Source of the DNA: an uncultured Candidatus Saccharibacteria bacterium
GTDB taxonomy: Bacteria > Patescibacteriota > Saccharimonadia > Saccharimonadales > SZUA-47
DNA length: 64,000 nt
NCBI GenBank assembly: GCA_964419675.1
Contig: CAYQPN010000003.1
Location: forward strand, 11,985 to 75,984
Reading direction: 5' to 3'
Below are positions 3,144 to 55,268 of this stretch, one piece after another. The notes beneath the pieces were generated by a model. That model saw only the letters and a program-made list of their open reading frames with translations, was not told the origin of the DNA and did not search any database. The translations under genes were made by a program, and so were the position numbers. Numbering within the stretch: position 1 is the stretch's first letter; every line of letters begins with the position of its first letter.

Positions 3144-3716
3144 ATGGCAAAGTTATATTTTAGGTACGGGGCTATGAATAGCGGTAAAAGTACCGCAGTG
3201 CTTCAAGTAGCACACAATTATGAAGAAAGAGGTATGAAAGTGCTTCTTCTGAAACCGGCAATTGATACAAAAGGAGAAGATCAAATAACTTCTAGGCTGG
3301 GTAAATCTCGTAGGGCTGACCACATGCTGAAACCTGACGAAACCGTTAAAAGTATTTTGAATAAAAACGTCAAGATAGATTGCATTATTACTGACGAGGC
3401 TCAATTTTTTACGCCTACTCAAATTGAAGAATTCTTTGACATAGCTGTAGCACAAAACATCCCCGTCATTTGCTACGGAATTCGAACTGACTTTCAACGC
3501 AACCTTTTTCCTGGGAGTAAGAGGCTGTTCGAGCTTGCGCACTCGCTGGAAGAGTTGAAAACAATCTGTAGATGTGGCAAAAAAGCCATATTTAACGGTA
3601 GAAAAATAAATGACAAATTTGTGTTTGAAGGCTCTCAGGTAGCAATAGATGGGGCTGACAAAGTCACCTATGAAAGTCTGTGTGGCAATTGTTATATCAA
3701 GGAAAAGAAAAGTTAA
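3144..3716 (+). CDS. tdk: Thymidine kinase
   Basis: 190 aa. P-loop GAMNSGKST, DEAQFF, and the C-terminal Zn-ribbon cysteines (CRCGKK..CGNCY) of type II TK. Confidence 0.95.
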   Translation: MAKLYFRYGAMNSGKSTAVLQVAHNYEERGMKVLLLKPAIDTKGEDQITSRLGKSRRADHMLKPDETVKSILNKNVKIDCIITDEAQFFTPTQIEEFFDIAVAQNIPVICYGIRTDFQRNLFPGSKRLFELAHSLEELKTICRCGKKAIFNGRKINDKFVFEGSQVAIDGADKVTYESLCGNCYIKEKKS

Positions 3717-3789: not shown

Positions 3790-5280
3790 ATGGGTAAGGC
3801 GCTTTACCGGAAATACCGGTCTAAATCACTAGACGAAGTTGTTGGTCAAGAACACATAACCAGCACCCTTAAAAATGCTCTTAAAAAAGGGGCTATTAGC
3901 CATGCGTATTTGTTTACAGGTCCAAGGGGCGTGGGAAAAACCAGTGTAGCAAGAATTTTGGCTTACGAAATTAACGGTCTGCCATACGATGAAGAGGCGA
4001 CACATCTAGATATTATTGAAATAGACGCAGCTAGCAACCGTAGAATAGATGAAATTCGCGATTTGCGTGAAAAAGTACATATTGCTCCAACTAGCGCTAA
4101 ATATAAGGTATATATTATTGACGAAGTCCACATGCTAACCCGAGAAGCCTTTAATGCATTATTAAAGACGCTTGAGGAGCCACCAGAGCACGTTGTATTC
4201 ATTTTAGCCACTACAGAGGCCCATAAGGTCCCTGAAACGATTATAAGTCGCACACAGCGCTTTAGCTTTAGACCCATTGGACAAGAACAAGCAATAGCAC
4301 ATTTAAAACAGATAGCTAAAAAAGAAAAGTTACCTATCGACGATGGAGCATTGACACTACTAGCTCAGCACGGCAAGGGAAGTTTCCGCGACAGCATAAG
4401 CATGCTTGATCAAATTGCCGGGTTTGGTGCTGATCAAATTACTGCTACTGACGTTGAGAGCTTACTAGGTGTTCCAAACCAAGATTTACTAATGTCTCTT
4501 TTAAGCTCCATAGCCAGTGGTAACGTTGACAAGCTATTTGAAACAACTACTCTACTGCGCGAACAAGGTGCCAATCCTGCAACAACTGCACAAGAATTAA
4601 TTTCTATTTTACGCAAACAGGTAATAGAACAGAGTGGCATTATTACTCCGTATGATGCTGTTGATTTAATGAAATCTTTACTAAGTTTAACCGGTAGCAA
4701 CAGTAGTTTTGTGGCAATAGAAGTTGGCTTACTAGACGCAATAAAATTCTCTCCGCAGAACAGCATAGAACTTAAAGAATTACGACCATTAGAACCTAAA
4801 AATTTAAAATCAGAGAATAATAAAATTGTAGAGGAAGAAAATATTCAACCTACTGCTGTAGAACGAAGCGAAGTTGAAGCACCTGAACTTATTGAAACAC
4901 AAGATGATGAGGTCGTTGAACCAGAAAAAGAATTGGTAAATATCTCAAACGGTAATTGGGAAGATGTATTAAATAGCCTGAAAGTCCAACACAACACACT
5001 ATACGGAGTGCTGAGAATGGCAAAAATTATAGAGAAAAAAGATAGCGTAATTTTAGAATTTAGATTTGCATTCCATAAAAAACAGCTAGATCACCCCAAA
5101 AATATGACTATTTTAAGACAATTTGTAACTGATCATCTCGGCAAAGCGTACAAGATTGAGTCTGTAGTCGCAGAAAGCAAAGACGACGAAAAGTCACAAA
5201 AAATAACAAAATCAGACCCAGAAACTTTAATTTCAAGCGTTAGCAATATCTTTGGTGGGGCAGAGTTGCTAGAATCTTAA
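3790..5280 (+). CDS. dnaX: DNA polymerase III subunit gamma/tau
   Basis: 496 aa. GQEHI..AYLFTGPRGVGKTS Walker A, IIDEVHML Walker B, SRTQRF sensor. Confidence 0.93.
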   Translation: MGKALYRKYRSKSLDEVVGQEHITSTLKNALKKGAISHAYLFTGPRGVGKTSVARILAYEINGLPYDEEATHLDIIEIDAASNRRIDEIRDLREKVHIAPTSAKYKVYIIDEVHMLTREAFNALLKTLEEPPEHVVFILATTEAHKVPETIISRTQRFSFRPIGQEQAIAHLKQIAKKEKLPIDDGALTLLAQHGKGSFRDSISMLDQIAGFGADQITATDVESLLGVPNQDLLMSLLSSIASGNVDKLFETTTLLREQGANPATTAQELISILRKQVIEQSGIITPYDAVDLMKSLLSLTGSNSSFVAIEVGLLDAIKFSPQNSIELKELRPLEPKNLKSENNKIVEEENIQPTAVERSEVEAPELIETQDDEVVEPEKELVNISNGNWEDVLNSLKVQHNTLYGVLRMAKIIEKKDSVILEFRFAFHKKQLDHPKNMTILRQFVTDHLGKAYKIESVVAESKDDEKSQKITKSDPETLISSVSNIFGGAELLES

Positions 5281-17611: not shown

Positions 17612-17715
17612 TTAATTTACCTGTCTATTAGCAATAATTATCACCAATATGGGTTGATATAGCAAGTCCTATATCGTCAAAATCGAGTCAAAGCGTTTAT
17701 ACTTAAATAATGAAT

Positions 17716-17794
17716 CCCGTTAGAAACGTAAGGAATTAAAGATAGTTATAAAAATGATACTGGAAAAATTAACTGATTGGGGGTTTCTAACGGG
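17716..17794. repeat. 79-bp inverted-repeat element (MITE-like), copy A, inserted at a start codon
   Basis: Termini CCCGTTAGAAAC...GTTTCTAACGGG (12-bp perfect IR, 14 bp including flanking AT). Flanked by direct ATGAAT (17710-17715 and 17795-17800). Same length and termini as 54392-54470. Confidence 0.5.
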
Positions 17795-18166
17795 ATGAAT
17801 TCCGAAGATCCGTTTGAAAATTTAGTATCTGAAGCAATAGATAATATTCCAAAAATGTATCAGGATAAGATAAAAAACGTACTATTTTCTGTTGAAGACA
17901 TGCCTTCACTTGAGCAAAGAAAGAAGCTGGGTCTTCGTTCCTGTGATGCATTATTTGGTCTATATGAGGGCATCCCATTAACTAAGCGTAACGGGGCAGT
18001 TCACAGTATAGTACCCGATAAAATTACTGTGTTTCGCTACCCAATGATTAATATATTTACTGACACTAATGAACTAAAAAAGCAAGTCTACGAAACAATT
18101 TGGCACGAAGTGGCTCATTACTTTGGGCTTGACCACAAGCAAATACACTCAGCAAAAAACAATTAA
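17795..18166 (+). CDS. Zincin-like metallopeptidase family protein (HExxH)
   Basis: WHEVAHYFGLD HExxH motif. Small (~123 aa) protein of the Zincin_1 type. ATG 17795 is preferred over the TTG at 17777 in the ORF track. Confidence 0.75.
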   Translation: MNSEDPFENLVSEAIDNIPKMYQDKIKNVLFSVEDMPSLEQRKKLGLRSCDALFGLYEGIPLTKRNGAVHSIVPDKITVFRYPMINIFTDTNELKKQVYETIWHEVAHYFGLDHKQIHSAKNN

Positions 18167-35633: not shown

Positions 35634-35665
35634 AAGAGGCCCCGATTTAAGGCCTCTTACTTTTT
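35634..35665 (+). terminator. Rho-independent terminator
   Basis: AAGAGGCC-N9-GGCCTCTT followed by ACTTTTT. Confidence 0.7.
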
Positions 35666-35700
35666 ACACATATAATACGCTATAGCGTATTATATGTGTA
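35665..35700. repeat. 36-bp perfect palindrome
   Basis: TACACATATAATACGCTA|TAGCGTATTATATGTGTA with no mismatch, between convergent genes. Confidence 0.9.
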
Positions 35701-35710
35701 CTAGGTCAAT

Positions 35711-36355
35711 TTATTTTTTTCTTTTTGAGCTACTTGCTGGTGCCAAGAACATGCTATAAACGTTCATACCCAGAACTGCCCCTAGTAGGGGTGCAAGTAC
35801 GGTTGTTCTATCCCAGGCGTTGTTAGCAAGGGCGACTGCTGGATTTACAAATCCCGGTGCTGCAAGTGCTGCTACTAAAATACCCAGCATTAATGAAGCT
35901 CCAACCGTAAATGCCAGTTGAAAACCTTCAAATTTTTGCATAACCGCGGCGGCGACTCCAAATCCAAACACTGCGGCACCGACCATTTCGGCTACAAATA
36001 CTCTAGAATCAAAAGTACTCATACCAACTGATGCAATATCTGCATTCCTAACATACTGTACAAAGGCAAGCGCCGCTGCGCCACCAAGTAGCTGTGAGGC
36101 TACCATGACAATTGCTTGCGGGCTTGGCACTTTTTTTAGAGTCCAAAGACCCAAAGTTATTGCTGGGTTAACGTGTGCTCCAGACACCCGCCCAATCACT
36201 CCTACTAGTGTAGCCATTGCCACACCCACGGCGACTGCGGTATACCACGGTGCCGTAAAATTAAAATAGCCAGCGCTGGCGATGGCTACCGTTGCAAGCA
36301 CAGCTGTGCCGAAAAATTCGGCTACAATCAGGCCAACTTTATTTTTATCTAACAT
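35711..36355 (-). CDS. MIP-family channel (aquaporin/glycerol facilitator)
   Basis: 214 aa with two NPA boxes (HVNPAITLG, VNPAVALA). Confidence 0.92.
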   Translation of the reverse strand: MLDKNKVGLIVAEFFGTAVLATVAIASAGYFNFTAPWYTAVAVGVAMATLVGVIGRVSGAHVNPAITLGLWTLKKVPSPQAIVMVASQLLGGAAALAFVQYVRNADIASVGMSTFDSRVFVAEMVGAAVFGFGVAAAVMQKFEGFQLAFTVGASLMLGILVAALAAPGFVNPAVALANNAWDRTTVLAPLLGAVLGMNVYSMFLAPASSSKRKK

Positions 36356-47949: not shown

Positions 47950-48034
47950 TAGTACTTTTTTGGTGGCTTTTCGCGCCACACGACGACCTACTTTCTTGTA
48001 TCAACCAGAAAGTAGGCAAAGAAATGACAGCCGG

Positions 48035-48178
48035 ACAAGAAAAACGCAATAACAAACTATGAAAATGTACTGCGCCCTGAGGACGGCAAGCGGTCCAAAG
48101 TAGTTTAAGAGTGGAAGACTTTGGACTAGCTCAGGGCTTGATTCAGTATATTTTCATAGTTTGTTTTGGTTTTCTTGT
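48035..48178 (+). ncRNA. Candidate structured RNA or element: 144-nt rod-like hairpin
   Basis: Three coaxial helices: 48035-48071/48144-48178, 48074-48081/48130-48137 (GCCCTGAG/CTCAGGGC) and 48093-48101/48118-48126 (GTCCAAAGT/ACTTTGGAC). One arm mismatch is a G-U only on the + strand. No family assigned. Confidence 0.3.
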
Positions 48179-48250
48179 TTTATGGCTGGTTTGGCTACTA
48201 ACTAATGCGAACTACTAGATACTAAATACTAGAGCGGGTATACTGTTTCC

Positions 48251-54319: not shown

Positions 54320-54391
54320 AATAATATGTATTATACTACATATTTATTATTTTTGCAAGTCACTTGCTTATGTTAAATTATAGATATGAAT

Positions 54392-54470
54392 CCCGTTAGA
54401 GTTAAAAGTGCTAACCACCATATTATTTCGACTATACTGATACTTATTTACCTAGGAGGACTCTAACGGG
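54392..54470. repeat. 79-bp inverted-repeat element (MITE-like), copy B, inserted at a start codon
   Basis: Termini CCCGTTAGAG...CTCTAACGGG. Flanked by ATGAA(T/A) at 54386-54391 and 54471-54476. Carries an AGGAGG Shine-Dalgarno (54464-54469 region) for xth. Confidence 0.5.
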
Positions 54471-55268
54471 ATGAAATTGTACAGTTGGAACGTTAATGGC
54501 ATTAGGGCTGTCTGGAACAAGGGCATGTTTCAAAAATTTATTGAAGAACACGACCCGGATATTTTGTGTTTACAAGAGACAAAAGCTCAACCAGATCAGT
54601 CGCCCGTTGATTTACCAAACTACATAGAATACTGGAATAGTGCCGAAAGAAAAGGTTACTCCGGAACGGCTATTTTCAGTAAAGAAATGCCGCTAGAAAT
54701 TCGTAACGGATTTTCTGACGTTGTTCAGAATTATTTTGAATTTCCAGATAATTTTGGAGACCCCACATGTGAGGGCAGGCTACTGAGCGCAAGGTTTAAG
54801 AATTTTTGGGTGGTAACGGTGTATACCCCAAACAGTAAGGATAAGTTAGAACGTTTGAACTTGAGGCACAAAGTTTGGGACCCAGCCTTCTTGATGCATG
54901 TCAAAGAATTAGAACGAGAACTGCCGGTACTTATTTGCGGAGATTTTAATGTTGCTCACCAAGAAATTGACTTAGCAAGACCAAAAGAGAATCAAGACAA
55001 GCACGGTTTTACCCTTGAAGAGCGTGAGGGTTTTGACGAAATGATTCAAGCTGGTTTCATAGATACTTTCCGAGCACTTCACCCAGACCAGAAAGACGCC
55101 TACACCTGGTGGACAGCGTGGGGCGGAACAAGAGATCGGAACGTCGGCTGGCGCATAGACTATTGGATGGCCAGTAAAGAGCTATTTGGCAAAATCACAG
55201 AGGCAAAAATTCACCCAGACGTAATGGGCTCTGACCACTGCCCAGTGAGCATCGAAATAGACATTTAA
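54471..55268 (+). CDS. xth: Exodeoxyribonuclease III
   Basis: 265 aa. SWNVNGIRA, LCLQETK, GDFNVAH and SDHCPV motifs. Confidence 0.95.
   Translation: MKLYSWNVNGIRAVWNKGMFQKFIEEHDPDILCLQETKAQPDQSPVDLPNYIEYWNSAERKGYSGTAIFSKEMPLEIRNGFSDVVQNYFEFPDNFGDPTCEGRLLSARFKNFWVVTVYTPNSKDKLERLNLRHKVWDPAFLMHVKELERELPVLICGDFNVAHQEIDLARPKENQDKHGFTLEEREGFDEMIQAGFIDTFRALHPDQKDAYTWWTAWGGTRDRNVGWRIDYWMASKELFGKITEAKIHPDVMGSDHCPVSIEIDI

Follow-up and report, generated by a model that had tools for sequence, protein, structure and literature searches.

In the stretch of DNA analysed in this study (64 kb, hereafter the window), a Zincin_1 metallopeptidase gene and the exodeoxyribonuclease III gene xth, both on the forward strand, each begin directly 3′ of an inverted-repeat pair of 79 bp, located at 17716-17794 (copy A) and 54392-54470 (copy B). 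The latter, of identical length, had been reported by an earlier note on this DNA and is present. The 9-mers that end the pairs, CCCGTTAGA and TCTAACGGG, have exactly four occurrences in the 64 kb, solely as these two pairs, compared with a chance expectation of ~0.5 occurrences for a 9-mer such as CCCGTTAGA, and a scan of the window for degenerate copies revealed none besides A and B. ATGAAT stands 5′ of both copies, and ATGAA with a real ORF stands 3′ of both. The inverted repeat is perfect over 12 bp (copy A) or 11 bp (copy B), with two flanking pairs in addition. Past the common 9-bp core the stems differ (AAC/GTT in copy A, GT/AC in copy B), and the interiors of the two copies are essentially unrelated in sequence. 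Folded as RNA, a check that the earlier note had proposed, both are predicted to form stable hairpins (-22.9 kcal/mol for copy A and -22.5 kcal/mol for copy B; z = -4.1 and -3.4, respectively). The features of the two loci are as follows.

17674..17703, + strand: promoter-like TCGTCA-18 nt-TATACT, the -10 hexamer ending 6 nt before the upstream ATG
17710..17739, + strand: mini-ORF MNPVRNVRN* (9 codons); the old start codon now reads into the left arm
17711..17714, unstranded: left TGAA target-site duplication of copy A (family-wide TNNA duplication)
17715..17795, unstranded: copy A, 81 bp with the terminal T...A; identical sequence on ENA contig L001
17716-17727 and 17783-17794: core repeat arms of copy A, CCCGTTAGAAAC and GTTTCTAACGGG
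17779..17783, + strand: SD-like GGGGG at the loop-facing side of the right arm, 11 nt 5′ of the working ATG
17796..17799, unstranded: right TGAA duplication of copy A, which with the terminal A (17795) rebuilds ATGAA
17795..18166, + strand: Zincin_1 (PF06262) metallopeptidase gene, intact from the downstream ATG
54386..54466, + strand: uORF of copy B, MNPVRVKSANHHIISTILILIYLGGL* (26 codons), spanning the whole element
54387..54390, unstranded: left TGAA duplication of copy B (compare the empty orthologous site L134)
54391..54471, unstranded: copy B, 81 bp with T...A; a diverged 100-nt copy lies at the same site in L132
54392-54402 and 54460-54470: arms of copy B, CCCGTTAGAGT and ACTCTAACGGG
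54454..54459, + strand: Shine-Dalgarno-like hexamer AGGAGG in copy B, 11 nt before the xth ATG
54472..54475, unstranded: right TGAA duplication of copy B
54471..55268, + strand: exodeoxyribonuclease III gene (xth, PF03372), its N-terminus MKLYSWNVNG complete from the downstream ATG

Both window copies have their insertion point at A/TGAA/N of the start codon of a leaderless-type gene. The TGAA duplication and the terminal A of the element, which in both copies is the A of the working ATG, rebuild ATGAA downstream and leave the ORF intact, and the old start codon and promoter are retained 85 nt upstream of the working ATG. The hairpins extend over the A and the T of the working ATG; the start codon does adjoin the stem, as had been noticed before, and the 9-codon uORF described at the old peptidase start exists as listed. 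The right arm supplies the TAA that ends the uORF of copy B, 4 nt ahead of the xth ATG. Leaderless-type starts are widespread in the window: TAnnnT peaks 6-7 nt before ATG (17 hexamer matches, 62 ORFs), and an SD-like run is present at just 13 of the 62 ORFs. The earlier note had stated that the same -10/ATG geometry recurs elsewhere in the window, and this holds window-wide. The promoter-like stretch 5′ of copy A is probably the original leaderless promoter of the peptidase gene.

The wider family, its termini and its target sites

We scanned a viral collection and a collection with one genome per species for the family pattern CCCGTTAGA-N-TCTAACGGG. Five loci matched in the viral collection and at least 120 in the genome collection; these are the further paired copies that the earlier note had thought worth seeking. 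The hosts, among the matches listed, are mainly Patescibacteria of many classes (63 loci), followed by Planctomycetota (16), Desulfobacterota/'delta' (13) and Omnitrophota (6 loci), with further matches in Nitrospirota, WOR-3, KSB1 and unclassified MAGs; the window is itself Saccharibacteria DNA. When the spacing was relaxed, at least 161 elements of 23-168 nt, bare hairpins included, were found in 126 loci, and elements were found nested inside other elements. Copies that are almost the same in sequence occur in Jorgensenbacteria MFKK01 (three of 78 nt, L025) and in Saccharibacteria CAYHEP01 (L042). Rfam returned nothing on the element in the window, at the gathering score or at a relaxed E-value, and no match at the gathering score in 18 family loci. 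Literature searches on the 9-mers of the element retrieved only primers and shRNAs, and those on CPR MITEs or palindromic elements nothing relevant. The family appears to be undescribed, and the statement in the earlier note that it matched no described repeat family is consistent with these negative searches.

The termini of the element read 5′-Y CCCGTTAGA...TCTAACGGG R-3′, and position counts together with register tests give the full layout as R - TNNA - [Y CCCGTTAGA NNN … NNN TCTAACGGG R] - TNNA - Y. Its terminal repeat has no mismatch over about 10-14 bp, with a modal length of 12 bp (69/137 copies among the matches listed), and the variable positions of the terminal stem stay complementary. 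The interior is freely variable (5-150 nt) and the elements are non-coding. Single unpaired arm sites are rare; the idea that they are the ends of a partner element was rejected, and they are decayed short copies.

Among the matches listed, 74 of 138 non-nested copies are flanked by an exact 4-bp TNNA repeat, compared with 8.9 expected from shuffled flanks. The identification of a terminal-inverted-repeat element with a target-site duplication, made in the earlier note from the window copies, is upheld by more than 160 further copies with the same termini and by flanking repeats far above chance. Its reading of the duplication itself needs correction: the direct repeat stands, and its size does not. 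The duplicated core is 4 bp by register tests, and 5-bp duplications are rare (L121 and the inner copies in L097 and L122). Several start-codon copies (L029, L105, L059 and L092) have ATG as the upstream start but GTG downstream, and the Y/R pair beside CCC/GGG is therefore the element's own. A 6-bp ATGAAT duplication was rejected in favour of a 4-bp TGAA and an element-borne terminal T/A; from the register tests and the family-wide statistics, the window duplication is therefore TGAA and the element is 81 bp long. The preferred targets are TTYA/TRAA, and the fully palindromic targets TTAA, TATA, TGCA and TCGA are depleted about seven-fold. About 30% of copies among the matches listed have no recognisable duplication, and nine duplication-free copies carry a constant left flank, AC[CT]TGT. 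A candidate class with inverted flanks was dropped, being at chance level (5 observed vs 9.1 expected).

Covariation was examined in two alignable subfamilies, a UUCG-type hairpin (12 sequences) and a 63-nt T-shaped group (10 sequences). Five to six stem pairs per subfamily have changes on both sides, and in the UUCG-type group the internal hairpin is compensated as well. The element lies in either orientation relative to transcription of the host gene, and G·U pairs are no more favoured than A·C, which suggests that pairing is kept at the DNA level. It would be maintained as a folded single strand, or by homogenisation of the repeats, and seemingly not for one RNA.

Orthologous loci, gene context and expression

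The element is polymorphic at orthologous sites, with Zincin_1 and xth orthologues empty and one xth orthologue filled. Five Zincin_1 loci lack the element and represent three or four distinct orthologues (L127 and L128 encode the same protein and have identical upstream sequence), with protein identities of 78-81% for P0003-P0005 and 74% for P0019. Most of these loci have a -10-like hexamer 6 nt before the ATG; L129, for example, reads TATACT-TAATAT-ATG, compared with TATACT-TAAATA-ATG at the upstream ATG of the window. The -10/6-nt/ATG layout of L129 and of L130, both element-free, matches that of the region at 17674..17703. For xth, five orthologues (L133-L136 and L138) are empty and leaderless-type, and the empty site in L134 reads …TTTAAAAT ATGAAT TTATAC. 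The leaderless geometry that the earlier note had assigned to the upstream ATG is thus found in element-free orthologues of both genes, with the -10-like hexamer 6-7 nt before the ATG. Empty sites, which would be expected of a mobile element and which the earlier note had suggested looking for, were found in diverged orthologues at 78-83% protein identity; exact empty junctions of either window copy (predicted as …TAAATAATGAATTCCGAAG… and …TAGATATGAAATTGTAC…) were not found in JGI metagenomes.

The filled xth orthologue, L132 (77% identity), has a 100-nt copy at the position of the window copy. It has the same arm variant as copy B (…AGAGT/ACTCT…) with one left-arm mutation, an SD-like GAGGG in place of the AGGAGG of the window, and a uORF terminated by the TAA of the arm. 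In a single-gene xth tree, each of the two filled loci clusters with empty ones and they do not form a sister pair; therefore either the site was hit twice or the element was precisely lost several times.

Start codons are a frequent site of insertion in the family. Among the matches listed, 39 of 137 classifiable copies adjoin the start codon of an ORF with 80 or more codons, and in Patescibacteria 29 of 75 copies lie on a start codon. Just 4.6% of the RTNNAY sites outside ORFs are start codons, as are 15% of the RTGAAY sites; start-codon copies are therefore enriched roughly 4-7-fold, which may reflect insertion preference or survival. The family termini also occur at -35 boxes. By a strict criterion, at least 14 copies lie inside long ORFs. 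These in-ORF copies read in frame as …(I/V/M)(N/D/H) PVR … SNG (I/V/M)…, and in RsmH such a copy forms an insertion of ~20 residues between blocks that align to PDB entry 1m6y. Length is divisible by 3 in 16 of 20 in-ORF copies vs 35% of intergenic copies, and 19 of 20 are in phase 0. Part of this phase bias arises because the target sites themselves favour phase 0 (55% of RTNNAY sites in ORFs); one other frame meets a TAG in the arm. The window copies, at 79 nt and on start codons, are not of the in-ORF type. T4 gene-60-type bypassing and inteins were also considered and were dropped, there being no supporting features.

For the start-codon copies we infer from the sequence an effect on expression that would combine a leaderless mini-ORF, a hairpin leader and then an SD-like run or stop-start coupling. 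Transcription would still start at the old leaderless ATG, which now opens the mini-ORF MNPVR..., and a hairpin of about -22 kcal/mol would immediately precede the gene's own ATG. A ribosome moving along the mini-ORF would open the hairpin and permit re-initiation, and initiation would be aided by the SD-like purines that the element supplies 11 nt upstream. In the xth copy, where the mini-ORF stops at the arm TAA 4 nt before the ATG, stop-start coupling is possible. The suggestion of the earlier note that the element converts leaderless genes into leadered ones controlled by a hairpin or uORF seems reasonable on this basis and is backed in part by the comparison of orthologues.

The frames of the right end, TCTAACGGG(A)TGA, bear on this model. 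One frame is open (SNG-M), the second has a TAA 4 nt before the ATG and the third a TGA overlapping ATGA. A ribosome from the old start therefore either continues, when the length is ≡ 0 mod 3, or stops, 4 nt before the ATG when it is ≡ 1 and on the ATG when it is ≡ 2. This rule is followed, with no earlier stop, by 16 of the 29 start-codon copies that retain an upstream start, and by both xth copies (window and L132) despite their 21-nt difference in length. Of 45 start-codon copies, 10 have an SD-like run on the side nearest the gene, vs 3 on the mirror side. Selection for uORF coupling is not demonstrated, because the frame through the element is not significantly more often open in start-codon copies (14/26) than in controls (46/106; p = 0.38). 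Avoidance of stops in the interior is weak (48% vs 36% in shuffles).

Competing readings and comparison with known systems

We interpret both window sequences as copies of a non-coding, hairpin-forming miniature transposable element of MITE-like type, with a probability of about 0.8. That the element is mobile is well supported. Of the features of MITEs, terminal inverted repeats, a duplication of fixed length, small dispersed non-coding copies and presence/absence polymorphism are seen. What counts against an ordinary MITE are the compensatory stem changes and the conservation of internal hairpins, which suggest that a folded strand is under selection; double-strand cut-and-paste does not need folding.

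This folding is also what a palindromic element of the single-strand (HUH/Y1) type would explain, whether a RAYT-mobilised REPIN or an IS200/IS605-derived PATE, in which the hairpin is the enzyme's substrate on single-stranded DNA. The perfect, compensated stems and the T-shaped or multi-hairpin interiors occur whatever the transcription strand, as this would predict, and element flanks of the TTAC and TTGAT-like kind recall the targets of IS608/ISDra2. However, such families make no duplication, and here a variable 4-bp duplication is exact in more than half of the non-nested copies among the matches listed; no position of the element co-varies with the target except the terminal pair, which leaves an IS608-type guide unsupported; and neither a REP-like GTAG motif nor, among the 633 neighbouring ORFs clustered, a RAYT or TnpA gene was seen. 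We therefore regard this explanation as unlikely. A removal at the RNA level would account for the same position at the start codon in another way: the hairpin would be an intervening sequence, cut or trimmed out to restore a leaderless mRNA from the downstream AUG. Nine class-2 copies have a -10-like box and an AUG adjoining the stem, the class-2 copies lack an upstream start codon and mostly an SD, and the duplicated ATGAA would leave the boundaries of excision ambiguous. Against this, the in-ORF copies are in frame and free of stops in the proportions given above, which would be needless if they were removed from the RNA, and no ribozyme or intron family was matched; it is a very improbable account.

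If only the two window loci were considered, a cis-regulatory RNA leader that evolved locally and is common to the two genes (a riboswitch, thermosensor or attenuator) would be suggested by the location in the 5′ region of both, the stable hairpin that occludes the start codon and the adjacent SD-like run. The interiors of the two copies are unrelated, however, orthologues lack the element, the same termini lie within ORFs, at -35 boxes and in other phyla together with target duplications, and Rfam offers no match. This reading is already largely refuted and we give it hardly any credence. As for the view that the inverted repeats arose by chance, or are paired sites for protein binding or DNA uptake, the identity of the 9-bp sequence is all that speaks for it. 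The 9-mer occurs only in pairs with identical spacing, the family has the large number of further paired copies with extended stems and duplications described above, and single unpaired sites are rare, so that its probability is negligible. DNA uptake sequences in particular were dropped, since the sites are only paired and are rare.

Within the mobile-element reading, a more specific and tentative possibility, which we consider doubtful, is that the copies belong to a distinct class of element that moves as a folded single strand (hairpin or T-shaped) and nevertheless makes a 4-bp duplication, with an enzyme possibly like that of piggyBac/IS1380 and with hosts in several phyla and phages. If this is true, 'translation-proof' ends would let the element colonise leaderless start codons and ORF interiors in gene-dense, reduced genomes, and the repeated filled and empty states of xth would mark either a hot spot at leaderless starts melted by the promoter or excision that leaves no footprint.

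CPR/Patescibacteria have small genomes tightly packed with genes, in which little mobile DNA is believed to occur. The family illustrates how selfish DNA persists in reduced genomes, through rebuilt start codons and in-frame read-through. It also matters for annotation, as the element gives rise to false N-terminal extensions and misassigned starts, such as a TTG-start ORF ('MGVSNG…') at 17777 and a 288-aa xth call (P0168). Leaderless genes that have repeatedly been made leadered, with a uORF and a hairpin, could serve as a natural experiment on translation initiation in organisms that are not yet genetically manipulable. The conserved 10-nt termini and the covariation that preserves structure provide a handle for finding the transposition system, and the element may mark horizontal exchange among CPR bacteria, other phyla and phages.

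A search of ~0.97 Mb of flanking DNA brought up neither a transposase nor a complete parent element bounded by these termini. Candidate autonomous partners in the form of long L…R pairs whose duplications match proved to be coincidences only, and the clustering of 633 neighbouring ORFs gave no recurrent transposase family, the top clusters looking like housekeeping genes on inspection of their sequences. IS1380 elements have 4-5-bp repeats and CC ends, and the element, with a 4-5-bp duplication and CC(C) termini, resembles both them and piggyBac. IS1380 has been used as the prokaryotic outgroup of piggyBac (PMC10813416), which itself has a 13-bp repeat (5′-CCCTAGAAAGATA), a TTAA target and precise excision (PMC5861402). 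The likeness to piggyBac extends to a 4-bp duplication of the form T…A (TTAA in piggyBac, TNNA in the element), to a 13-bp repeat that starts with CCC and contains TAGAAA (5′-CCCTAGAAAGATA in piggyBac, CCCGTTAGAAAT in the element) and to empty orthologous sites without a footprint. In contrast to piggyBac, TTAA is depleted among the targets of the element, and an extra Y/R pair separates its duplication from CCC. The similarity covers little sequence and may be a coincidence, and by this analogy mobilisation of the piggyBac/IS1380 type is suggested as a lead only.

The other parallels are with families of small repeats. Integron attC sites likewise have conserved short termini (GTT/AAC cores), a variable structured middle and conserved pairing. 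Identity with attC was nevertheless dropped on account of the inverted order of the boxes, R''(RYYYAAC)...R'(GTTRRRY) in attC as opposed to GTTAGA...TCTAAC in the element, whose copies are moreover dispersed with duplications and come without cassette ORFs, cassette arrays or an integrase. REP/REPIN-RAYT and IS200/IS605 PATE families are similar in being short hairpin repeats that conserve structure rather than sequence, but they have no target duplication and do have a linked HUH transposase family. The Correia elements of Neisseria (CREE/NEMIS) belong to one genus and have a single conserved body, with repeats of 26 bp and a duplicated TA. Like the present family, they are non-coding terminal-repeat elements with a target duplication in 5′ regions; they form hairpins when co-transcribed and can supply sequence resembling a promoter or RBS (PMC10969869). 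Unlike them, the element conserves ~10 nt per terminus, has unrelated interiors and rebuilds the start codon.

The Rickettsia palindromic elements (RPEs) are small palindromes found in frame in protein-coding genes (Ogata et al., 2000, cited in PMC10969869). They too are palindromic selfish DNA in unrelated genes that is read through as an extra peptide, an analogy drawn from behaviour and not from sequence. RPEs are about 100-150 bp long, compared with about 23-170 nt here, and are found in one genus, whereas the element is found in Patescibacteria and other phyla and not in Rickettsia; it also differs in its defined terminal repeat of 10-13 bp, 4-bp duplication and frequent start-codon sites. 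The kind of element is thus already known, namely a MITE or palindromic selfish DNA with RPE-like in-frame insertion. What is unusual in this family is the conservation of ~10 nt per terminus over several phyla and phage contigs, the covarying pairing, and the strong association with start codons, in which the start codon is rebuilt by the insertion.

Target sites and copies without a duplication

Across 160 copies drawn from the whole family of these miniature hairpin-forming inverted-repeat elements, the palindromic tetranucleotides TTAA, TATA, TGCA and TCGA make up 3% of the element flanks, as against 23% of background TNNA sites. Fully palindromic targets are either avoided at insertion, or the insertions made into them are quickly lost. 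Nine copies lack the target duplication (the 4-bp TNNA direct repeat that flanks an element) and have in common a constant left flank, AC[CT]TGT, as well as a start codon located immediately 3′ of the right of their two paired terminal arms:

L038, L052, L054, L087, L102, L005 and L078: the copy at each locus
L058 and L094: the inner copy

In several of the nine, a -10-like box lies 6-15 nt upstream, which would place the start of the transcript at the hairpin. None of the models tried accounts for these nine copies.

Reading frames through the element

Mechanical ORF listing and gene callers run ORFs on into the element. For the Zincin_1 peptidase whose start is occupied by copy A, mechanical listing returns a TTG-start frame, 'MGVSNG-MNSEDP…' (window 17777-18166), and the public call for an xth orthologue with a diverged 100-nt copy (P0168, 288 aa; L132 868-1734) has its N-terminus inside the element ('…IIRGNSNG-MKLYSW'). 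N-termini with an 'SNG' that derives from the element should therefore be watched for as artefacts of annotation. Copies within ORFs usually read PVR at the left arm and SNG at the right; the only one seen with a PLE/LTG frame instead is a 66-nt copy in a Pirellulales dTDP-glucose 4,6-dehydratase (L012, about 1878-2984), which is read in the other open frame as …A PLE IPRRLDILKKPNKQEF LTG R….

Long repeats, palindromes and other structured sites

At L023, a 92-nt element copy lies inside a ~320-bp inverted repeat (2046-2369 and 4832-5155, 89-95% complementary), the halves of which enclose a gene for a 686-aa secreted protein. The long repeat recurs elsewhere in this MAG, on further contigs (see also L018, L081 and L043), and may represent an invertible or composite unit. 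A Parcubacteria contig with two element copies (L066) also contains a group I intron, which scores 57.8 bits against Rfam RF00028 and lies at 3154-3454. Two further structured sites lie in the window:

35665-35700, both directions with TATAAT: perfect 36-bp palindrome, TACACATATAATACGCTA|TAGCGTATTATATGTGTA
48028-48188, intergenic: 45-nt imperfect inverted repeat, 78% complementary

The palindrome, which has a terminator-like hairpin on one side and the start of the minus-strand gene 35714-36355 on the other, could serve as a symmetric promoter or operator. The intergenic repeat holds a GC-rich, self-pairing 71-nt centre (GCCCTGAG…CTCAGGGC) and is not covered by any Rfam match.

tRNA genes beside arms or repeats

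In a Saccharibacteria MAG (L056 4950-5130), a complete tRNA-Thr(CGT) lies directly between two arms, as CCCGTTAGA + tRNA + TCTAACGGG. A second tRNA-like gene, almost identical to the first, holds this unit in the region of its D-arm and is itself followed by a further TCTAACGGG. The element appears either to have captured a tRNA as cargo or to have mediated a tRNA duplication. The window has a tRNA gene among repeats of its own:

25156-25230, minus strand: tRNA-Gln(TTG), within the region 25111-25258

It is bordered on either side by a 21-nt inverted repeat (25139-25159 / 25238-25258, 95% complementary), and ~20 nt of its 3′ end (TGGCTGGGGAGGAGGGATTT) are directly repeated 45 bp off, at 25113-25132. 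The repeats of this region resemble the att-site remnant of an integrated element.
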